DNA of 64,000 bases from Escherichia phage L27: the sequence record LC473039.1. One strand, 5' to 3'. Positions 3,277-42,446 of this stretch are shown piece after piece; position 1 is the stretch's first letter, and each line of letters opens with the position of its first letter. The notes below the pieces were generated by a model. The model was not told the origin of the DNA, searched no databases, and saw nothing but the letters and a program-made list of their open reading frames with translations. The position numbers and the translations under genes were made by a program.

Positions 3277-3475
3277 ACGCCTTTGGGAAGGTTTGGTTAT
3301 TGATGCACCAGTTATTGTAATTGGTATGCTTATTGCTAACCTATTTACTGACTTTAAACAAGGTTTGTTGTTTGGAGTCATGTTACTATGGGTTATATTT
3401 GAAATCCTAGAGATACAGTTAGGTATCACTGAAAAACTAAGAGAACTCTTTGCGAAGTTTTCTAAAAAGATTTAA
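3269..3475 (+). CDS. small membrane protein
   Basis: 68 aa, two hydrophobic helices; followed by terminator hairpin. Confidence 0.45.
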   Translation: MLKRLWEGLVIDAPVIVIGMLIANLFTDFKQGLLFGVMLLWVIFEILEIQLGITEKLRELFAKFSKKI

Positions 3476-3482
3476 AATGAAA

Positions 3483-3505
3483 GGGTCTCTTCGGAGACCT
3501 TTTTA
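3483..3505 (+). terminator. Rho-independent terminator (GGTCTC-TTCG-GAGACC + T run)
   Basis: Perfect hairpin followed by TTTTT. Confidence 0.7.
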
Positions 3506-3523
3506 GCATGTAAAGGGGCAATA

Positions 3524-4720
3524 ATGAACAAAGTACAGATTATTAAAAAGAATGGCTCACTCGAAGAACCTGATATCAAAAAAGTTTTAGTAGCAGTCAC
3601 AAAGTCAGCTAATAGGGTTGGGTATAAAGAACTCCCACCAGACGTTACCCAAGCTCTTGAGTCAGCATTTATGAGGATTCTGGTAAAGTCCACTAAGCAG
3701 AATAATTTGCTAATTTCTGTAAATGATATTCACAGTATTGTTGAGGGTGCTTTGGCAGAAGTCAATCACGAGATTTATGAGTCTTACTCAACATATAGAA
3801 ATTACCGTAAAGAAGTTGCTCAAAATTGGGATGAACTCTACCAGAAGACCAAAGATACACTCTTCTTAGGTGACAGAGAGAATGCTAACTTTGACAGCAG
3901 TTTAATTTCTACAAAAGGTTCAATTATTCGTGGTTATCTGACTAAAGAAATCTTTAAACAGTACCATTTAACACCAGAGGAACTTGAAGCCATTGAAAAA
4001 GGGTTTATCTATATCCATGATTTAAGAGACCTAATTTTTGGTGGTATCAACTGTTGCCTGTTTGACATTGGTAAAGTCCTGAAAGGTGGCTTTGAAATGT
4101 CTGGCATCGAATATTGTGAACCAAAGTCTGTGCTGTCGGCCTTACAGGTTATTGGTGACGTAGTTCTTTCAGCAACTGCACAGCAATTTGGTGGCTTTAC
4201 TTTAGCAGAGATTGATAAGGTACTTGTACCGTATGCTAAGAAGTCTCTACGCTATCATGCTGAGAAAGCAGCATCTTATGGTATTCCTAAAGAACATTAC
4301 CACAATTATGTCATGGAGCAGCTACAGATTGAACTGACTCAAGGTTTCCAGTCACTTGAAATGAAACTAAATACTGTACCTTGCAGTCGTGGGGATTTTG
4401 CATTCACAACTTTAACATTTGGTTTACTTGACTCAGATATGTCTAATGAAGATAACCGACTACAATACATGATTGCAAGTACTCTCCTAGATGTTCGTAT
4501 GAATGGACAAGGTAAGAGCAAGAAGCCTGTTGTATTCCCTAAACTGGTTTATATTTATGACCAGAAGAGACACGATGAGAATATCTGTCAAGGACACCTG
4601 TACAGTAAAGCCATTGAGTGTTGCTCTAAAGCAATGTATCCAGATTTCTTAAGTGTATCTGGTCATGGTGCTGTAGCAGAAGCTTTTGAGCGTTCTGGCA
4701 AGGTAATCTCGCCGATGGGT
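3524..4720 (+). CDS. nrdD: anaerobic ribonucleotide reductase NrdD, exon 1 (ATP-cone + N-terminal catalytic region; ends ...ISPMG)
   Basis: ATP-cone-like N-terminus; ORF terminates at TAA immediately after ...SPMG, while conserved continuation CRAFLSP is found in frame at 5037. Confidence 0.8.
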
Positions 4721-5036
4721 TAACAGGCTCTATAGCTCATCTAAAACGTGCCTAAACAGGGAAACTCTACAGATGTAGACAATCCTGTGCTAAATGATGT
4801 ACGATGTAAGAAACTATACAACATAGGAGTCTTACATGCCAAATAACTTCGAATACGAGTTTGAATACATCTAAATGCCGAACGACTAACCGTGATGAAT
4901 GTAGCGGTGTAGGGTCAAGCGACTCGAAATGGTACGCTACTTAGAAATAAGTAGAAGATATAGTCTGGACTTACTGGCGACAGTAAGCAGCTTGAATAAA
5001 GCGGGGTAAGCTTAGCGAACTTACCTGAACAACAAG
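4721..5036 (+). other. group I self-splicing intron interrupting nrdD (ORF-less, 316 nt)
   Basis: Exon 1 ends in T (4720), intron ends in G (5036); joining gives ...ISPMG|CRAFLSPYHNEYGEEFYVGRANIG...; internal CAGGGAAACTCTACAGATG resembles the conserved group I P3/P4 core; no ORF inside. Confidence 0.75.
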
Positions 5037-5984
5037 TGTAGAGCATTTTTATCACCATACCATAACGAATATGGTGAAGAGTTTTATGTAGGTCGTGCAA
5101 ACATTGGTGCTGTATCTTTGAACTTACCAATGATTTACCAGTATTCTAAAGAGAATGGTTTAGATTTCTGGAAAGAGCTTGATAAGTACCTAGAGATGAT
5201 TCGTAGTTTCCACAAGAAACGCTACGAAATGATTGCTAATATGCCAGCAAGTTCTAACCCTCTTGCATTCACACAAGGTGGTCTGTACAAAGGAACTAAA
5301 AAATCCACCGACAAGGTTGGTTGGGATATCTTGAAGTCCTTCACAGCTTCTTTTGGGGTTACTGCGCTTGATGAGTTATCTGTTCTTACTGAGGGTAAAC
5401 GACTTCATGAAGTTGGAAGCTCTAGTTTTGCATACGATGTTCTGGCATACATTAACATGAAAACTGAAGAGTTTAAGAATGAGGATGGCTTCTTGTATGC
5501 GGTATATGGTACTCCAGCAGAGTCATTGTGTGGAACTCAGCTAAAACAGTTCAGAGATATGTTTGGTGTTATCAAAGGCGTTTCTGACAAGGAATACTTT
5601 ACAAACAGTTTCCATATGAATGTTGCAGCAAACATCTCACCATTTGAGAAGCAGGACTTAGAAGAACCATTCTTCCATATCTGTAGAGGTGGCAGAATCC
5701 AGTATGTAAGGGTAGCTAACCCAGAAAACTTAACAGCACTTAAAAGTTGTATTACAAGAGGGATGTTGAAGGGTTTCTATCAGGGGCTTAACTTTGACTT
5801 AGCAATCTGTGAACATTGTGGTAACAGACCAAAGGCTGACGTTGAAGAATGTGAGGTTTGCCATTCACATGATATCTCTGTGATTAACAGGGTGTGTGGG
5901 TACTTGTCATTCACAAAAATTAAAGGCCAGTCTCGAATGAATGACGCTAAGATGGCAGAAATTAAGGATAGAGTTTCTATGTAA
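5037..5984 (+). CDS. nrdD: anaerobic ribonucleotide reductase NrdD, exon 2 (glycyl-radical domain)
   Basis: In-frame open from 5016; C-terminal glycyl radical motif RVCGYL and Zn ribbon CEHCGN...CEVCHS. Confidence 0.8.
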   Translation, partial: CRAFLSPYHNEYGEEFYVGRANIGAVSLNLPMIYQYSKENGLDFWKELDKYLEMIRSFHKKRYEMIANMPASSNPLAFTQGGLYKGTKKSTDKVGWDILKSFTASFGVTALDELSVLTEGKRLHEVGSSSFAYDVLAYINMKTEEFKNEDGFLYAVYGTPAESLCGTQLKQFRDMFGVIKGVSDKEYFTNSFHMNVAANISPFEKQDLEEPFFHICRGGRIQYVRVANPENLTALKSCITRGMLKGFYQGLNFDLAICEHCGNRPKADVEECEVCHSHDISVINRVCGYLSFTKIKGQSRMNDAKMAEIKDRVSM

Positions 5985-5994
5985 AACTTGACAA

Positions 5995-6035
5995 GGTGAT
6001 GTGGGTCTTGATAGGCTTACATCACCTTTTTATTT
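5995..6035 (+). terminator. Rho-independent terminator after nrdD
   Basis: GGTGATGT...ACATCACC stem followed by TTTTTATTT. Confidence 0.6.
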
Positions 6036-6046
6036 GGAGTTACATT

Positions 6047-6382
6047 ATGGACTTGTGGCTTTATGTAGCAGTTTGTGGGATTGTATGTCTGATAATCTTA
6101 TTTATTCTTGGAGTAATGCGATTTAGAGACATCATACAGTCAGATTTTTTGCCTGAGTTTGCCATGATAGTTGGGGTTATTGCCCTTTGTGTCTTGGCAG
6201 TGTTCTATTCATACAAAACTGTGATATGGATGGAGGCAAACAATTGTGTAAAAACTCATCAGCATCGTGAGGTTACTCATTTTGTGAGTGTACTTAGTGG
6301 TAGCACCACTATACTTGTCCCACAAACTTCTGTAGAATATCTTTACACATGTGATAATGGTAAAACTATATGGTGGAATTAA
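6047..6382 (+). CDS. hypothetical membrane protein
   Basis: ATG at 6047 behind GGAG; two predicted TM helices. Confidence 0.45.
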   Translation: MDLWLYVAVCGIVCLIILFILGVMRFRDIIQSDFLPEFAMIVGVIALCVLAVFYSYKTVIWMEANNCVKTHQHREVTHFVSVLSGSTTILVPQTSVEYLYTCDNGKTIWWN

Positions 6383-36663: not shown

Positions 36664-36740
36664 CTCTGTTTAGCTCAGCTTGGTAGAGCGTTCCGTTTGG
36701 GGCGGTAAGGCCGGAGGTTCAAGTCCTCCAACAGAGACCA
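36664..36740 (+). tRNA. tRNA-Pro (anticodon TGG)
   Basis: Manual fold: acceptor CTCTGTT/AACAGAG, D-arm GCTC/GAGC, T-arm GGAGG-TTCAAGT-CCTCC, CCA encoded. Confidence 0.75.
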
Positions 36741-36747
36741 AATTAAT

Positions 36748-36825
36748 GTTCCAGTAGACAAAATGGTATAGTCACCACTCTTTCAAAGTGGATATTTGAG
36801 GGTTCAAATCCCTTCTGGAACGCCA
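36748..36825 (+). tRNA. tRNA-Glu (anticodon TTC)
   Basis: Acceptor GTTCCAG/CTGGAAC, anticodon arm CCACT-CTTTCAA-AGTGG, T-loop TTCAAAT, CCA. Confidence 0.75.
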
Positions 36826-36916
36826 GTTTTGACAGAAGACCAATTACAGCAAACTTAATCTTATTCATCTGAAGGTAAATCGGACAAAGAAGAGACTTGG
36901 TCTGGTCATTAAGAAT

Positions 36917-36993
36917 TGCGGGTATAGAGAAAGGGCGTCTCACATGTCTCATTAGCATGGTATCGGCAGGTTCGACTCCTGCACCCGCCTCCA
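36917..36993 (+). tRNA. tRNA with CAT anticodon (Met / fMet / Ile-lysidine)
   Basis: Anticodon arm CATGT-CTCATTA-GCATG, T-arm GCAGG-TTCGACT-CCTGC; possible 1:72 mismatch; CCA. Confidence 0.65.
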
Positions 36994-37077
36994 AATTTAC
37001 AGAAGACCGTTTACAGCAAAATTGAATGAAATTTTTAGCGGAAAAATTGAAAGATACGGTCTGGTAATACTAAACAT

Positions 37078-37151
37078 GGTTAGGAAGCACATAAGGTATG
37101 TGCGGTCGCCTGTTAAGCGAATGGCACAGGGTTCGAATCCCTGACTAACCG
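37078..37151 (+). tRNA. tRNA-Asn (anticodon GTT)
   Basis: D-arm GCAC/GTGC, anticodon loop CTGTTAA, T-arm CAGGG-TTCGAAT-CCCTG. Confidence 0.7.
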
Positions 37152-37163
37152 CAAAATTTAAAT

Positions 37164-37251
37164 GTGTCGTTATCCCGTAGATGGTAGCGGTGGGGACTGT
37201 AAATCCCTTGTCATTGAGACTCGGTAGGTTCGACTCCTACACGGCACACCA
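37164..37251 (+). tRNA. tRNA-Tyr (anticodon GTA), long variable arm
   Basis: Acceptor GTGTCGT/ACGGCAC, anticodon loop CTGTAAA, T-arm GTAGG-TTCGACT-CCTAC, CCA. Confidence 0.75.
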
Positions 37252-37273
37252 ACACTTAGCGAGATACTTAGTT

Positions 37274-37702
37274 ATGAGAGATGAAGTATACAAATCACAA
37301 CTTGGTATGAGTTTGGGAACTGCACAAAACAGACTAGTAAAAGATTTGCTATTCGATTTTATATGTAAGACAAATCAAAATAGATGTTTTCAGTGCGGAA
37401 AAGAAATGACTAGGGATGATTTCTCTATCGAGCATAAGATTCCGTGGAGACATAGTGAGAATGCAAAAGAGCTTTTCTTTTCACTAGATAATATTTCTTA
37501 TAGTCATCTTAAATGTAACATGAAAGCAGCAAGACCAGCACAGATAAGTGAAAGAAAACATAAAACAATTAAACACGGAACTGCGTATAGTTATTTTAAA
37601 GGCTGTAGATGCGATGAGTGTAGGTTGGCTAAGAATGCTGAGAGTAGAAGAAACTATAGTCCAGAAAGACGTAGGAAGAAGTATCTAAGAAATGGCACAT
37701 GA
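37274..37702 (+). CDS. HNH homing endonuclease (tRNA-cluster embedded)
   Basis: HNH core SIEHKIPW...SHLKCN; C-terminal YFKGCRCDECR; ORF-track start 37181 overlaps tRNA-Tyr, ATG 37274 used. Confidence 0.7.
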   Translation: MRDEVYKSQLGMSLGTAQNRLVKDLLFDFICKTNQNRCFQCGKEMTRDDFSIEHKIPWRHSENAKELFFSLDNISYSHLKCNMKAARPAQISERKHKTIKHGTAYSYFKGCRCDECRLAKNAESRRNYSPERRRKKYLRNGT

Positions 37703-37705
37703 ATT

Positions 37706-37781
37706 TGGGGTATTAGTTTAGACGGGTAAAATACGGGATTGTCTCTCCTGAGCCGCGAGTTCGATTCTCGCATACCTCGCC
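37706..37781 (+). tRNA. tRNA, anticodon GTC (Asp) or TGT (Thr) depending on fold
   Basis: Acceptor GGGGTAT/ATACCTC, T-arm GCGAG-TTCGATT-CTCGC, CCA; anticodon loop ambiguous. Confidence 0.6.
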
Positions 37782-38212
37782 AATTTTGAGAGGGCTATTT
37801 AGCCCCTCCCTTAAAGGGTTCTTACGAGTATCTTTTAAAGGAGCAGAAGACCAAATACAGCAAGAACGTATGAAAATTTCAAGCCAATTTAATTTTGAAA
37901 AATTTAAAACTTGGTCTGGCTCAACAAATTTACAGAAGACCGTTTACAGCAAAACTTAAACAATCTATTTCTCGGTAAAGAAAAGGCGAAGGTTCGATTC
38001 CTTCACTCGGCAGATGTCGAGTTGGTGTAATGGTAGCACTTAAGATGATAAACAACGGTCTGGTAATTATCTTTGTAGATAAGTTATTAAGCTTACCTGT
38101 GAGTATGCGACCACAAAGGGTGAAAGGGTAAATTCTAGATTTAAACCCAACAAGGCACATCGCTACAGACCTTAAGCAAGTCTGGGTAGCTTATCTACAA
38201 AGATAATTTAAT

Positions 38213-38288
38213 GGAAGTGTAGCAGAATGGTGATGCGGTAGACTTTTAATCTGACAGGCGATGGGTTCGAATCCCTCCACTTCTACCA
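38213..38288 (+). tRNA. tRNA-Lys (anticodon TTT), atypical T-stem
   Basis: Acceptor GGAAGTG/CACTTCT, anticodon loop CTTTTAA, T-loop TTCGAAT, CCA. Confidence 0.55.
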
Positions 38289-38292
38289 AAAT

Positions 38293-38369
38293 GGTTCAGT
38301 CGCAGATAAGGTAATGCAAGGGTCTCATAAGCCCTATGAATGTGGGTTCGATTCCCATCTGAACCTCCA
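38293..38369 (+). tRNA. second tRNA with CAT anticodon (Met/Ile2)
   Basis: Acceptor GGTTCAG/CTGAACC, anticodon arm AGGGT-CTCATAA-GCCCT, T-loop TTCGATT, CCA. Confidence 0.7.
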
Positions 38370-38377
38370 ATTTATAG

Positions 38378-38872
38378 GTGATACTTATGATTTGTGCCAA
38401 CAAAGATTGCAGAAATGAAGCCGTTAAAGGTGGAAAATTTTGCTCACGCTCTTGTTCTGCAAAAGTGAACAACAAGAAACACCCAAAGAGAAGTCAGGAA
38501 GGCTCTTGCCATTCATGCGGAAAGGTAACGCCAAAAGCGAGAAAATACTGTGACGAATGTATTGCAGGTGGAGTCATGAAAAAACATAAGACCCATCATG
38601 AAAAAAGCAAAGCCAAATCACTGCACGTTAAAAAGTCTCGTGACAGACTGAAGAAGGCTTTAGTTGATTACAAGGGTGGTTGTTGTTCAATTTGTGGTTA
38701 CAATAGGTGCATAAAGGCTCTAGAGTTTCACCACTTAGACCCTAAGACAAAAGACTTCACAGTAAGTAAAAAACACTACTCACTGGCTACAATGCAGTCT
38801 GAAGTTGATAAGTGTGTCTTGCTTTGTGCAAATTGCCACAGAGAAGTACACGAAGGGGTAACAATGCTGTGA
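38378..38872 (+). CDS. HNH homing endonuclease (zinc-binding)
   Basis: Multiple CxxC pairs and HNH motif EFHHLDPKTKD...CANCHREVH; RBS AGGTGA. Confidence 0.7.
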   Translation: MILMICANKDCRNEAVKGGKFCSRSCSAKVNNKKHPKRSQEGSCHSCGKVTPKARKYCDECIAGGVMKKHKTHHEKSKAKSLHVKKSRDRLKKALVDYKGGCCSICGYNRCIKALEFHHLDPKTKDFTVSKKHYSLATMQSEVDKCVLLCANCHREVHEGVTML

Positions 38873-38941
38873 AAGCACATATGGATGTGCATTCGGCTGA
38901 TAACCGAAAGGCAGAAGGTTCAAATCCTTCTCACAGTACCA
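38866..38941 (+). tRNA. tRNA-Ile (anticodon GAT)
   Basis: Start overlaps HNH stop codon; D-arm GCAC/GTGC, anticodon arm TTCGG-CTGATAA-CCGAA, T-arm GAAGG-TTCAAAT-CCTTC, CCA. Confidence 0.75.
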
Positions 38942-38956
38942 ATTTCAATAAAGTTG

Positions 38957-38985
38957 TTGACATTGAGATGTGACTACTTTATAGT
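38957..38985 (+). promoter_or_regulatory. strong sigma70 consensus promoter (TTGACA-N17-TATAGT) inside tRNA cluster
   Basis: GTTGTTGACATTGAGATGTGACTACTTTATAGTAACC; ~200-nt untranslated leader before next tRNA. Confidence 0.6.
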
Positions 38986-39189
38986 AACCTTAGTTTTCGT
39001 TGCGTAGCGTCTATTTTGCAAATTTAAAATAAATGCAAACGACAATGTTTTTCTGGCAGTAGCTTGATAGGCTAAACACCAGTGAGGTCTTCCAATCCCT
39101 CATCAAAGAATTTGGCGTACTCGCCCACGGTATGATTAATAAGGTGGGCATCTTTAAGGGCTTTCTAAGAGAGTCTTTAAAGATAATTA

Positions 39190-39271
39190 CGGGGCGTATC
39201 TCAGCGGTCTTCTAAACCGCCGTTAACCGAGTAAGTGGAGTATGCGGGTTCGAGTCCTGCCGCCTCGACCA
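39190..39271 (+). tRNA. atypical tRNA-like gene (possible tRNA-Arg, anticodon TCT; D-arm not resolvable)
   Basis: Good acceptor CGGGGCG/CGCCTCG, T-arm GCGGG-TTCGAGT-CCTGC and CCA; perfect stem-loop GCGGT-CTTCTAA-ACCGC but spacing non-canonical. Confidence 0.4.
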
Positions 39272-39414
39272 ATTTAGTTAGCAGATTACTTAGACGACCT
39301 AAGCGGGTCTTCCTGTAGGGAGGTGGTCTGTATCTCATGTTTTCCAGAACATGTAAATAATCTGAGAAGGGGCTTTACAGTGTTGAGATAATACGGTAAG
39401 CTTCGAATTATAGT

Positions 39415-39497
39415 ATGGGACGATGTTAAGACTCTAAGGCATGAGCAACGGCTTCCAACACCGTTTCAAAGGGGTTCAACTCCTCCGTCCCATGCCA
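39415..39497 (+). tRNA. tRNA-Trp (anticodon CCA) candidate with enlarged D region
   Basis: Acceptor ATGGGAC/GTCCCAT perfect, anticodon region ACGG-CTTCCAACA-CCGT resembles Trp arm, T-loop TTCAACT, CCA. Confidence 0.5.
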
Positions 39498-39510
39498 AAG
39501 TCTTATTAGG

Positions 39511-39600
39511 GGTAGGTAGCGGCTAATGGTAGCCAAACAGTCTTGAAAACTGTTGCCACTGTAGAGATACGGTGAGGGTTCGACTCCTTTACTTACCGCC
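39511..39600 (+). tRNA. tRNA-Ser (anticodon TGA), long variable arm
   Basis: Anticodon arm ACAGT-CTTGAAA-ACTGT, variable arm ~20 nt, T-loop TTCGACT. Confidence 0.7.
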
Positions 39601-39854
39601 TAATAAGATTTTACACCGTCCATGCTTGCTCGCATTTTCGGTTTATCCCTCGTGTATTGTCGTACACTGATAAAGCACCTAGTAGGTGTCACGGAGAAGA
39701 GATAATATCAAGCTCTCCAAAGGTTCTAGTCACCGGATTAAACAAGACTATGCAAAGACCAAATTAGGTCTTTTTAGAGGGCTTCTAAGGTTATTACAGC
39801 TTGTTGTGGAACCTTGTTGCTTAGGTTCTTAGAAGTTCTCTAAAAAGATTTAAT

Positions 39855-39932
39855 GGGAGATTGACGGTAATTGGTAAACCTATCTCGCTTAGAACGAGAT
39901 GTTTGAGGGTTCGAATCCCTTGTCTCCTACCA
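39855..39932 (+). tRNA. tRNA with anticodon TAG (Leu) but short variable arm
   Basis: Anticodon arm TCTCG-CTTAGAA-CGAGA, T-arm GAGGG-TTCGAAT-CCCTT, CCA. Confidence 0.55.
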
Positions 39933-39939
39933 AATTAAT

Positions 39940-40015
39940 GCAGGTGTAGCAAAATGGTTATGCGGCTGACTCTTAATCAGTAAGACGATGGGTTCAATTC
40001 CCTCCACCTGTACCA
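39940..40015 (+). tRNA. tRNA-Lys (anticodon CTT), atypical T-stem shared with Lys-TTT
   Basis: Acceptor GCAGGTG/CACCTGT, anticodon arm GCTGA-CTCTTAA-TCAGT, CCA. Confidence 0.55.
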
Positions 40016-40021
40016 GACATT

Positions 40022-40097
40022 GGGGATGTAGTTTACATGGTTAAAACATAAGTTTTGCAAACTTAAGTACAGGGTTCAATTCCCTGCTTCTCCACCA
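40022..40097 (+). tRNA. tRNA-Ala (anticodon TGC)
   Basis: D-arm GTTT/AAAC, anticodon arm TAAGT-TTTGCAA-ACTTA, T-arm CAGGG-TTCAATT-CCCTG, CCA. Confidence 0.65.
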
Positions 40098-40103
40098 ATT
40101 AGT

Positions 40104-40178
40104 GCATCCATAGTTTAAACGGGAAAATTGCAGTCTTCCAAACTGAGGTTGAGGGTTCGATTCCCTCTGGATGCTCCA
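40104..40178 (+). tRNA. tRNA-Gly (anticodon TCC)
   Basis: Acceptor GCATCCA/TGGATGC, anticodon loop CTTCCAA, T-arm GAGGG-TTCGATT-CCCTC, CCA. Confidence 0.7.
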
Positions 40179-40184
40179 AATAAA

Positions 40185-40261
40185 GCTGCTTTCGTATAAT
40201 TGGCTATTACACATCCCTTGTAAGGATGGAAATGCAGGTTCGAGTCCTGTGAGCAGCACCA
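40185..40261 (+). tRNA. tRNA-Thr (anticodon TGT)
   Basis: Anticodon arm CATCC-CTTGTAA-GGATG, T-loop TTCGAGT, CCA. Confidence 0.75.
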
Positions 40262-40356
40262 ATTCAGAGGTCAAGTGAAAGACCGCTGGTGTCAACTGAA
40301 GACCGTAACAAATTCCACGGAGTTGAGTTAGCGGCACAACTTCAGACCTCTTTCAC

Positions 40357-40431
40357 ACTCGCTTAGTTTATATGGTAAAACATCACCCTTACAAGATGAA
40401 GAAAAAGGTTCAAGTCCTTTAGTGAGTACCA
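40357..40431 (+). tRNA. tRNA-Val (anticodon TAC)
   Basis: D-arm GTTT/AAAC, anticodon loop CTTACAA, T-arm AAAGG-TTCAAGT-CCTTT, CCA. Confidence 0.65.
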
Positions 40432-40432
40432 T

Positions 40433-40510
40433 GTTCCAGTATCCCAATTGGCAGAGGATGCAAGCTCAAACCTTGTATTAGTGACGGTTCGAATCCGTCT
40501 TGGAACACCA
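40433..40510 (+). tRNA. tRNA with anticodon CAA (Leu) but short variable arm
   Basis: Acceptor GTTCCAG/TTGGAAC, anticodon arm GCAAG-CTCAAAC-CTTGT, T-arm GACGG-TTCGAAT-CCGTC, CCA. Confidence 0.55.
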
Positions 40511-40529
40511 ATTTTAAGAGGCTATTTAG

Positions 40530-41087
40530 ATGAGATATTTGAAGTATGCTTCATGGATTTTCCTAGCTTTACTAGAGCCATTTGCAGCAACCCTAGCAGT
40601 CATCTTAGCACCTTTCGTAGTCCCATTCTACAGTGAGAAGAAAGGGCATCTACCTTTTGGATTCAGATGGATGGAGACCTATGACAACCCGATTGATGGT
40701 GATGAAGGCCACGTTAAAAGATGGGCTAAGATTAGAAAGATTGGTAAGCTGGGTGTCTACATGCAGAGAGTTGGGTGGCTCTGGAGAAACAAAGCTTATA
40801 ACTTCTCTTACCATGTATTAGGAAGAGATGTAAAAGATGTTACTAAGTGGAAAGGTAATATCAACGTAAGTTCTAACCCTGAAGATAATCAAACAGGTTA
40901 TCTCCTAATGTGGAACAGAAATGCTTGGGGTTTATTTGCTTTTATCCCATCAATTAAAGTCTTTGGTAAACAGTTTTACTGGAGAATTTATATTGGATGG
41001 AAACTAAAAAGTGTTGTCCCAGAAGAAAGAGCATTCTCAAGGGAAAGAGTTATGTTGGCATTCTTTATTCATCCACTGAGAAAGTAA
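40530..41087 (+). CDS. hypothetical membrane protein encoded inside the tRNA cluster
   Basis: 185 aa, N-terminal TM helix, Trp/Arg-rich; no overlap with tRNAs. Confidence 0.45.
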   Translation: MRYLKYASWIFLALLEPFAATLAVILAPFVVPFYSEKKGHLPFGFRWMETYDNPIDGDEGHVKRWAKIRKIGKLGVYMQRVGWLWRNKAYNFSYHVLGRDVKDVTKWKGNINVSSNPEDNQTGYLLMWNRNAWGLFAFIPSIKVFGKQFYWRIYIGWKLKSVVPEERAFSRERVMLAFFIHPLRK

Positions 41088-41095
41088 AGATTTAA

Positions 41096-41171
41096 AGGGG
41101 ATTAGTTTACAAGGTTAAAACCTCGGTCTTTGAAATCGAAGAAGTTGGTTCAATTCCAACATCCCCCGCCA
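41096..41171 (+). tRNA. tRNA-Gln (anticodon TTG)
   Basis: D-arm GTTT/AAAC, anticodon arm TCGGT-CTTTGAA-ATCGA, T-arm GTTGG-TTCAATT-CCAAC, CCA. Confidence 0.65.
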
Positions 41172-41173
41172 AT

Positions 41174-41252
41174 GCTCCATTACTCCAATTGGCAGAGAGG
41201 CCAGACTTAAAATCTGTGTTATGTATCGGTTCGAATCCGATATGGAGTACCA
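41174..41252 (+). tRNA. tRNA with anticodon TAA (Leu), short variable arm
   Basis: Acceptor GCTCCAT/ATGGAGT, anticodon loop CTTAAAA, T-arm ATCGG-TTCGAAT-CCGAT, CCA. Confidence 0.55.
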
Positions 41253-41257
41253 AATTT

Positions 41258-41333
41258 AGCGGTATAGCATAACTGGCAATGCAGCAGTCTCTGAAGCTGT
41301 CCTATTAAGGTTCAAATCCTTATGCCGCTGCCA
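41258..41333 (+). tRNA. tRNA-Gln (anticodon CTG)
   Basis: D-arm GCAT/ATGC, anticodon loop CTCTGAA, T-arm TAAGG-TTCAAAT-CCTTA, CCA. Confidence 0.65.
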
Positions 41334-41364
41334 CTTCTAAGGGTTCTTACGAGAGTCCTTAAAT

Positions 41365-41440
41365 GTGGCCTTATCATAAATGGTAATGACCCATGCTGTG
41401 AACATGGTCTATACGGGTTCAAATCCCGTAGGTCACCCCA
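41365..41440 (+). tRNA. tRNA-His (anticodon GTG)
   Basis: Anticodon arm CCATG-CTGTGAA-CATGG, T-arm ACGGG-TTCAAAT-CCCGT, CCA. Confidence 0.75.
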
Positions 41441-41445
41441 ATTTA

Positions 41446-41521
41446 TAGTCCAAGTAGCTTATATGGTAAAGCGCGTGTCTGAAAAACATGAGAAGAGGGT
41501 TCAAATCCCACTGGACTACCA
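41446..41521 (+). tRNA. tRNA-Phe (anticodon GAA)
   Basis: D-arm GCTT/AAGC, anticodon arm CGTGT-CTGAAAA-ACATG, T-loop TTCAAAT; acceptor pairing imperfect in manual fold. Confidence 0.6.
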
Positions 41522-41537
41522 ATTTCAAAGGTGCTTA

Positions 41538-42272
41538 ATGAAAGAGATGACAGAACAAGGTAAGGAGATTTTTAATCTCTTAAAAACCGGTAAAGGGTTT
41601 TCTAACCCACTTATTACTGGTGCAGCAGTTCTCGGTGGAACCGTAGCTGCCTCTACATCACTTGTAAACTCTATTAGTTCTGTAACAGACCCTACAATGA
41701 AGGATAAACTTGTTGCTGCTGGACTTACAACAGTCCTTCTAAACAGCTTTACAACAAGCCTTACAAGCACTACAGCAACTACTAAGACCCTAACAGACTA
41801 CGGTCAAAAGTCTATTGATGAGTTTTCATCACGTATGCAGGTAGCAAAGGGATACTCCAATGTTATGGGTGCAGCAGGAGAACAAGTTGGTTGTACACCA
41901 TTCAGTGGTATTATGGGTGTTGCTACAGAGTATGGTCAAAAAGCTATTGACACGATTAACAGTACACTGGATAGTGTTAATGATGTGTTAAGTGACTTAC
42001 AAGATGCTATTGATAAGGGTCTTGATACTGTTTCTGATTTAGCTAACCAAGCTGTAAGTAAAATTAATGAAGGTATTTCAAAGATTACAGCTTATGCAGA
42101 TGAAGTTGTGCAGATGATTGAAGAAGAAGCTGCACTTATTGCAGAGTACCTTAAAACGAATATCAATGGGTTCTTAGCAGGTATCTTACCAGACTGGTTT
42201 GATGATGCTTGCAAAACTGGTGTAATTGACACTATTGCAACACCAGAAATGAAGAACGCATTACAGAAATAA
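41538..42272 (+). CDS. hypothetical Ser/Thr-rich protein (possible virion-associated)
   Basis: ATG 41538; ORF-track start 41322 overlaps four tRNAs and is rejected. Confidence 0.5.
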   Translation: MKEMTEQGKEIFNLLKTGKGFSNPLITGAAVLGGTVAASTSLVNSISSVTDPTMKDKLVAAGLTTVLLNSFTTSLTSTTATTKTLTDYGQKSIDEFSSRMQVAKGYSNVMGAAGEQVGCTPFSGIMGVATEYGQKAIDTINSTLDSVNDVLSDLQDAIDKGLDTVSDLANQAVSKINEGISKITAYADEVVQMIEEEAALIAEYLKTNINGFLAGILPDWFDDACKTGVIDTIATPEMKNALQK

Positions 42273-42273
42273 T

Positions 42274-42366
42274 GGAAGATTAACCCTAAAAGGTAAGGGA
42301 GCAGTTTGCTAAACTGCCAGTAGCTGAGAAATCGGTGTACCAGTTCAAGTCTGGTATCTTCCTCCA
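42274..42366 (+). tRNA. tRNA-Ser (anticodon GCT), long variable arm
   Basis: Acceptor GGAAGAT/ATCTTCC perfect, anticodon arm GCAGT-TTGCTAA-ACTGC, T-arm ACCAG-TTCAAGT-CTGGT, CCA. Confidence 0.75.
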
Positions 42367-42370
42367 ATTT

Positions 42371-42446
42371 GAATCCGTGACAGAAATGGCTATGTGCCTG
42401 TCTGCAAAACAGGTTTATAAGGGTTCGAGTCCCTTCGGATTCTCCA
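42371..42446 (+). tRNA. tRNA-Cys (anticodon GCA)
   Basis: Acceptor GAATCCG/CGGATTC perfect, anticodon arm CCTGT-CTGCAAA-ACAGG, T-arm AAGGG-TTCGAGT-CCCTT, CCA. Confidence 0.75.

Follow-up and report, generated by a model that had tools for sequence, protein, structure and literature searches.

A probable self-splicing group I intron of the sunY type, with a deleted HNH endonuclease gene, interrupts nrdD in Escherichia phage L27

The nrdD reading frame of Escherichia phage L27 breaks off at a stop codon and is taken up again 316 nt further on, which raises the question of whether two polypeptides are made, whether the gene is dead, or whether the insert is removed from the RNA. The window analyzed was a 64,000-nt stretch of this phage (LC473039.1), and all positions are given in window numbering. 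The sequence comparisons favor, with a probability of roughly nine in ten, the reading that positions 4721–5036 are a functional self-splicing intron of subgroup IA2 (sunY type), whose HNH endonuclease gene was deleted by a loss of 426 bp.

The phage is a Felix O1-like myovirus of the genus Felixounavirus, and dozens of Felixounavirus genomes from Salmonella and Escherichia phages matched the region 3400–6100 with 94–97% identity. The local gene order was nrdA, nrdB, glutaredoxin, a small membrane protein, and nrdD, with nrdG located further downstream. Just 5' of nrdD, a GC-rich hairpin (GGTCTC-TTCG-GAGACC, 3484–3499) was flanked by T-runs; the Meda record annotates it as a terminator. A promoter-like site was located at 3450–3478. 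The hairpin and the promoter-like site suggest that nrdD may be transcribed separately from nrdA, nrdB, and the glutaredoxin gene. The 3' flank of nrdD was a hotspot for free-standing mobile genes, with an extra 188-codon ORF in JH2 (L002, 4519–5085) and a MobE-like HNH endonuclease gene in VpaE1 (L011, 2599–3135). The equivalent segment of the window (~5985–6050) contained the terminator only. Elsewhere in the window, a dense tRNA array (36664–42443) gave 24 tRNA-model matches, two of which were weak or atypical. The match at 39511–39598 was 88 nt long and scored higher with the tRNA-Sec model, yet under the threshold of that model, and the match at 39190–39268 reached 31.7 bits. A tmRNA-like fragment at 38999–39188 was not significant.

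The coordinates of the exons, the intron, and its structural elements are listed in Table 1. Exon 1 was colinear with intron-free nrdD and contained the Pfam ATP-cone domain and positions 1–250 of the NRDD profile. Exon 2 contained positions 264–560 of the same profile and the Gly_radical domain, and aligned to solved NrdD structures; it is the segment that had been described as the conserved continuation of NrdD. The exon 1 frame reached GGT at 4718–4720 and was followed by TAA at 4721–4723, exactly where the preliminary description had the frame stop after ...ISPMG. Exon 2 opened with TGT AGA GCA TTT (CRAFLSPYHNEYGEEF), encoding CRAFLSPYH.... The frame had also been said to resume in frame at 5037. 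The position was accurate, but the two exons are out of register in the genome, as the 316 nt do not amount to a whole number of codons, and they come into frame only after excision.

Table 1. Coordinates of the nrdD exons and of the predicted intron elements in the window
Feature	Position	Strand	Remarks
nrdD exon 1	3524–4720	+	399 codons; ATP-cone and N-terminal half of NrdD; ends ...ISPMG
Group I intron (subgroup IA2, sunY-type)	4721–5036	+	316 nt; Rfam RF00028, covariation, intron-free relatives
P1	4714–4720 / 4735–4741	+	Exon GAUGGGU with internal guide GCUCAUC; U4720·G4735 at 5' splice site
P10	4727–4734 (GCUCUAUA) / 5037–5044 (UGUAGAGC)	+	8 bp, -10.5 kcal/mol; also in MFE fold
Catalytic core	4747–4965	+	P3, P4, P5, P6, P7, P8
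P3	4747–4752 / 4931–4936	+	98–100% paired, double changes
P4	4756–4760 / 4784–4788	+	98–100% paired, double changes
P5	4766–4779	+	89% paired, double changes
P6	4789–4790 / 4877–4878	+	Invariant
P6a, enclosing loop L6a	4796–4801 (GAUGUA) / 4866–4871 (UACAUC)	+	6 of 6 pairs change on both sides across lineages
Hairpin AUGUAAGA/UCUUACAU	4804–4837	+	Holds Shine-Dalgarno UAGGAG (4824–4829) and part of AUG; MFE fold
HNH relic	4836–4874	+	12 codons (MPNNFEYEFEYI, then stop); start and stop kept; last codons form P6a 3' strand
P7 (GACUA/UAGUC)	4884–4888 / 4961–4965	+	Invariant
P7.1	4889–4892 / 4905–4908	+	Compensatory changes
P7.2	4912–4916 / 4921–4925	+	Compensatory changes
P8, GAAA loop	4937–4954	+	98–100% paired, double changes
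Peripheral 3' domain	4970–5036	+	P9, P9.1, P9.2, tail to terminal G
P9, GCGA tetraloop	4970–4987	+	
P9.1	4990–5002	+	
P9.2	5004–5026	+	
Terminal G	5036	+	Final G in 9 of 9 aligned introns
nrdD exon 2	5037–5984	+	315 codons and stop; first codon TGT = catalytic Cys; glycyl-radical domain
Intrinsic-terminator-like hairpin and T-run	5993–6028	+	Closes nrdD transcription unit; terminator annotated at same position in Meda

The boundaries of the insert could be read directly from intron-free relatives. In NBEco004 and VpaE1, nrdD was contiguous across the GGT/TGT junction (...CCGATGGGT/TG(T/C)AGAGC...), and the predicted spliced junction of the window is ...CCGATGGGT/TGTAGAGC.... The two exons together comprised 2145 nt, the length of the uninterrupted gene in both phages, and the NrdD of the spliced window was 98.0–98.6% identical in amino acids to theirs. 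When the two exons were joined artificially and 243 nt spanning the junction were compared with the phage database, many Felixounavirus genomes contained this sequence in one piece with an identity of 90–94%. At least 80% of the junction was covered in 146 records, and among the 42 listed, the lowest-ranked 33 were single contiguous pieces. Since intron-free relatives are continuous across GGT/TGT, the insert is a discrete optional element, with the exact boundaries first proposed for it, following the exonic T at 4720 and ending with G at 5036. Once it is removed precisely, the conserved reading frame runs through without a break.

The exons flanking the insert were also compared between seven intron-bearing and two intron-free alleles (L009 and L011). 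The last 60 nt of exon 1 showed no class-specific difference, whereas several differences were located at +9 to +54 of exon 2 (5037–5091). The amino-acid change at +26 (H/L) tracked the intron, except in RPN213, which had the intron-free form. With two intron-free sequences compared, the first ~55 nt of exon 2 look like a one-sided co-conversion tract or an endonuclease-immunity tract.

The group I call of the preliminary description was borne out by a covariance-model search, in which the insert scored 53.3 bits with Rfam RF00028, above the gathering score of 50; the E value, calculated over all 64 kb of the window, was 1e-10. The margin over the threshold was 3 bits, and the scores elsewhere were 60.4 bits for the RPN213 allele and 105 bits for the T4 nrdD intron. 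No second group I intron was found in the window down to E = 0.05. The P1/P2 placement given by Rfam (4673–4720) was rejected, as it lies inside exon 1; the true P1 is that of Table 1, and P2 is absent. The 742-nt, ORF-containing copy of BPS17L1 (L001) gave no RF00028 match at the gathering threshold. Because Rfam misses such copies, ORF-stripped sequences were made by hand for the covariation test.

Nine ORF-stripped introns, from the window, JH2, RPN213, Krischvirus phiS, Vequintavirus A13b, Phapecoctavirus nepoznato, Vibrio phage F95, Mosigvirus TH58, and T4, were aligned by MAFFT without structural information. Standard pairs occupied 94.0% of the pair cells in this alignment, compared with 32–40% when the partners were slid by 1–3 columns. 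Changes on both sides were observed in 39 of the 78 pairs, and none of 500 shuffles reached any observed covariation measure. Helices P1, P3–P9.2, and P7.1/P7.2 were supported, while P6 and P7 gave no covariation signal because both are invariant. De novo folding of the same alignment with RNAalifold yielded P1, P3–P6a, P7.1, P7.2, P8, P9, and P9.2, and the single-sequence MFE fold recovered most of the proposed helices (z = -2.96). Taken with the RF00028 E value and the intron-free relatives, the fold places the group I signal well beyond chance. In the alignments with close relatives, the differences of the window intron were located in loops or were changes from G-C to G·U in P6a. An intein, ribosomal bypassing, and a frameshift were ruled out by the stops in the exon frame from the first codon, the length of 316 nt, and the ribozyme fold.

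The conserved core P3–P8 was present, with the P3/P7 pseudoknot and the guanosine-binding helix P7. The segment CAGGGAAACTCTACAGATG (4757–4775), formerly taken as the P3/P4 core, in fact comprised P4, J4/5, and P5. Between P7 and P3' lie two additional hairpins, P7.1 and P7.2, which mark subgroup IA, and by its sequence features the intron is assigned to subgroup IA2, the type of the T4 td, nrdB, and nrdD introns. The pairing of P1 was 100% in the nine introns, its U·G wobble was retained in all nine, and its outer pair covaried (G-C/C-G/U-G). Loop L1 opened with the in-frame UAA, and a UAA in this position, ahead of the guide sequence, was found in 8 of 8 introns checked. Vibrio phage F95 had a P10 of different sequence with 8 compensatory base pairs (-11.4 kcal/mol), and P10 was weak in the T4, TH58, and phiS introns.

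A rival reading is that of a splicing-dead relic, in which the ribozyme would be disabled, nrdD would be a pseudogene, and the phage would rely on NrdAB or the host NrdD. Such a relic would suit the marginal Rfam score and the aerobic NrdA and NrdB encoded by the phage, which may make nrdD unnecessary for growth in aerobic culture. In addition, the deletion changed the arrangement of loop L6a and might thereby slow folding, and self-splicing is a prediction. However, all core helices were intact, the ORF-stripped sequence was 97–98% identical to the HNH-bearing relatives and RPN213, and the deleted segment belongs to a peripheral loop that is only 4 nt long in the T4-site relatives. The same 316-nt allele was found in about 30 independent isolates. 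When the window was compared with other intron-bearing phages, dN/dS was 0.02–0.05 in both exons, with dS of 0.16–0.28; the exon 2 range left out the BPS17L1 and Meda rows, in which the splice pattern had matched TGTAGAGC within the HNH ORF. These ratios indicate strong purifying selection on both exons among intron-bearing phages. Taken together, the intact helices, the sequence identity, the shared allele, and the selection make a dead relic very unlikely.

A second rival reading follows the annotation of nrdD as two genes, which is found in most public records and would describe a truly split gene, with polypeptides of 399 and ~284 residues assembling into an active reductase in the manner of Aeh1 NrdA. 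Functional intronless split ribonucleotide reductases are reported (Aeromonas phage Aeh1 nrdA, split by mobE; cited in PMC3653736). In the window, however, the exon 2 frame contained no ATG, GTG, or TTG from the preceding stop up to 5118, and this first possible start codon comes 27 codons after that of the catalytic Cys (5037). The catalytic Cys is therefore untranslatable without splicing, and exon 2 offered no start and ribosome-binding site covering all essential downstream residues. The start of the public "second nrdD gene" (e.g. MW362867 and PP948675) corresponds to an internal ATG at window position 5130, so that 31 residues are lost, among them the catalytic Cys400 and the conserved CRxFL finger-loop motif. 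As the insert also has every ribozyme hallmark, a split gene is hardly credible. Judged by these reading frames, the two-gene annotation is a systematic misannotation in most intron-bearing Felixounavirus records.

The Meda record, in which the nrdD CDS is annotated as a two-piece join, is different. The Meda genome announcement mentions "another intron" in the DNA polymerase gene, so that an nrdD intron is implied (PMC6486253). The HNH-bearing parent intron was thus already recognized in Meda, and the present intron is less novel than first assumed. No introns were reported in the genome paper on Felix O1 (PMC3185647), later papers refer to a "split nrdD interrupted by a homing endonuclease" (PMC4837284), and for SPJ41 "two introns" have been reported. 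The literature searched described neither the RNA structure of the intron, nor the site of its insertion, nor the ORF-less allele; the remarks in PMC4837284 and PMC6486253 were the only ones found. Nor did it contain a report of experimental splicing of any Felixounavirus intron.

Splicing of the window intron is expected to follow the chemistry of the well-studied T4 introns. In the pre-mRNA, the exon and guide strands of P1 would pair with the U·G wobble at the cleavage site, and free guanosine held in P7 would attack after U4720. The first eight bases of exon 2 would form P10 with the adjacent guide segment. The freed 3'-OH of exon 1 would then attack after G5036, joining GGU to UGU. The predicted product is one mRNA encoding a 714-residue NrdD, in which the catalytic Cys, corresponding to T4 Cys290, is the first codon past the junction. 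The UAA at the first intron codon would halt exon 1 ribosomes before they unfold the ribozyme. Coupling of translation and splicing has been described for T4 introns, and the L1 UAA in all eight introns fits a coupling of the T4 type.

The 316-nt form raised the further question of whether an endonuclease gene had been lost or had never been present. The insert had been described as carrying no homing endonuclease, and this held, as it contained no plus-strand ORF of more than 33 codons. In BPS17L1, JH2, Meda, and others, the intron was 742 nt long and contained a 154-codon ORF within L6a. The product of this ORF matched Pfam HNH_3 and was a full-length homologue of I-HmuI (PDB 1u3e, E = 1e-9, residues 3–152 of 154). 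The deletion is evident from the DNA alignment with BPS17L1 and JH2, in which exactly 426 bp (142 codons) were missing from the window, in frame, and the corresponding ORF segment of the relatives was located inside the loop enclosed by P6a. The Felixounavirus HNH introns (Meda, BPS17L1, JH2, UAB_Phi87, and FSL SP-010) occupied the same site and had a ribozyme 97–99% identical outside the ORF; the window intron equals this form minus 426 bp of the ORF.

In place of the intact homing-endonuclease gene of a mobile intron, a 12-codon stub remained (ATG CCA / AAT AAC TTC GAA TAC GAG TTT GAA TAC ATC TAA, encoding MP + NNFEYEFEYI and a stop). When aligned with HNH proteins from three lineages, the stub matched the two ends of these proteins, and its C-terminus was homologous to the HNH C-termini of nepoznato (Phapecoctavirus; NNYDYEFCYE) and F95 (Vibrio phage; NTYPFDFEYF). 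The predicted hairpin at the start of the stub is read from the fold as a relic of the translational control of the endonuclease, and hairpins covering the Shine-Dalgarno sequence were seen by eye at the equivalent position in phiS, A13b, nepoznato, and F95. RPN213 had a different deletion, which extended to the start codon and the hairpin as well and left an intron of 292 nt. Hence there were at least two losses of the endonuclease, and the stub is dispensable.

Since the C-terminal codons of the stub are homologous to HNH C-termini, the ORF-less state is derived. The reverse order, in which the 316-nt form is ancestral and the HNH gene invaded the 742-nt relatives later, draws on the known ability of endonuclease genes to invade pre-existing introns and on contigs of unrelated, uncultivated viruses that have an ORF-less group I intron at this nrdD site (L060 630–892, 263 nt; L029 5160–5351, 192 nt). 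It is highly improbable, given that the window retains the Shine-Dalgarno sequence, the ATG-CCA start, and the last 10 codons of the ORF, that the gap is exactly 142 codons, and that the second deletion, in RPN213, has other end points.

A tblastn search of the window with the intron HNH, the MobE-like HNH, the extra ORF of JH2, and I-TevII matched the stub only (4842–4871), and no free-standing endonuclease gene adjoined nrdD in the window. This differs from the ORF-less intron in gene 43 of Aeromonas phage 25, which depends on an endonuclease encoded elsewhere (PMC2993671). Both introns are small, lack an endonuclease gene, and reside in an essential gene of nucleotide metabolism or replication, but the window has neither a nearby free-standing endonuclease nor a homologue of the four endonucleases searched for. 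Another parallel is the T4 nrdB intron, which splices but is non-mobile, as its I-TevIII HNH gene was inactivated by a large deletion while the full copy is present in RB3 (PMC2988022). That intron is likewise in a ribonucleotide reductase gene and has a deleted HNH gene, and it differs from the window intron in the gene, the sequence, and the extent of the deletion. I-HmuI itself is an HNH nicking homing endonuclease from the DNA-polymerase intron of Bacillus phage SPO1, with another target gene and phage group. Its homologue is complete only in the relatives, where the activity is predicted from homology, and the window keeps 12 codons of it.

A further sequence was observed in the HNH ORF of BPS17L1 (L001, 2982–2994) and Meda (L018, 1823–1835), where AATGG-TGTAGAGC is similar to GATGGGT/TGTAGAGC, the homing site of intron-free genes, minus GT. 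It was absent from the window, and JH2 had TGTAGAAC at this position. The likeness to the homing site could be due to chance, or it could be an operator-like mimic, as in T4 intron endonucleases (PMC2988022).

The intron had been linked to the nrdD introns known from T4-like phages, and this kinship was supported in the core but not in the insertion site. The ORF-stripped core was 66–78% identical among all lineages compared and ~70% identical to the T4 nrdD (sunY) intron. By BLAST, the window intron was 79% identical to a Krischvirus nrdD intron, and its 3' half was 71% identical to the T4 td intron. The T4 sunY intron likewise resides in nrdD, lacks P2, and has P7.1/P7.2 and P9.1/P9.2. The guide core GCUCAU and the in-frame UAA in L1 were common to both introns, and the segments J1/3 (UAAAA), J6/7-P7, and J8/7 (AAGAUAUAGUC) were identical. 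The T4 intron, however, is 1033 nt long and has the GIY-YIG endonuclease I-TevII placed 3' of P9, whereas the lineage of the window had an HNH endonuclease in L6a, now deleted.

When T4 was spliced in silico at the homologous positions, the known 1033-nt intron and a 605-residue NrdD were obtained, with Cys290 in an SPMGC motif. Residue Cys400 of the window aligned with T4 Cys290, known from NrdD biochemistry as the thiyl-radical cysteine of the finger loop. The window intron is located immediately 5' of the Cys400 codon, while the T4 intron is inserted at codon 180, corresponding to window residues 280/281. The before-Cys site, at the identical nrdD codon, was also occupied by an intron with an HNH unit in four other phage groups, represented by phiS (Krischvirus), A13b (Vequintavirus), nepoznato (Phapecoctavirus), and Vibrio phage F95. 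The intact intron HNH ORF of phiS (PP449093; L008 and L005) lacks an annotation, nrdD of F95 (L006) was split by two HNH-containing inserts, and the "Campylobacter phage" A13b (L013) is classified as a Vequintavirus. In IMG/VR, 49 loci had the P7.1 motif, 17 in nrdD and 32 in other genes, and at least 15 of the 17 nrdD-located matches were at the before-Cys site. The window intron is thus a further, endonuclease-deleted member of a long-known family of sunY-type phage introns.

The distribution within the genus was read from the phage database, in which 93 records bore the intron. An HNH ORF was present in 61 of them, so that ~32 were ORF-less, and ~116 records were intron-free (209 matching the junction query minus 93). 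The ancestor of the window intron carried an I-HmuI-like HNH homing endonuclease in L6a, and the in-frame deletion of 426 bp left the present stub. As the HNH gene was removed by this deletion, the intron would be unable to drive its own homing; as it still occupies the HNH target site, that site would be protected, on analogy with the T4 introns.

The 5' flanks of the two nrdD sites, AUGAGU and AUGGGU (AUGRGU), fit the same guide core GCUCAU. A history can be sketched in which the sunY family reached both sites by reverse splicing, an HNH endonuclease in L6a was picked up at the before-Cys site instead of a GIY-YIG endonuclease after P9, and the 316-nt allele persists as a "vaccinated" form. 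This history is tentative and rather unlikely to hold in full, an assessment that applies jointly to the two-site reverse splicing, the endonuclease swap, and the persistence of the vaccinated allele. If it were true, the endonuclease-less allele would be cost-free and immune to a still-circulating HNH enzyme. The vaccinated allele would comprise about one-third of the intron-bearing Felixounaviruses, in a genus in which more than half of the genomes are intron-free.

The current understanding of group I introns is unaltered by these results, and their main value is practical. About 90 public Felixounavirus genomes contain the intron, and nearly all of them annotate nrdD as two genes. Recognition of the intron corrects nrdD annotations that lack the catalytic cysteine. 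In addition, the genus offers a small set of naturally occurring states in which the life cycle of a homing element can be studied, including intron-free genes, introns with the HNH gene, and two independent HNH deletions, at one nrdD codon where the same intron-plus-endonuclease unit is found in at least five unrelated phage groups.
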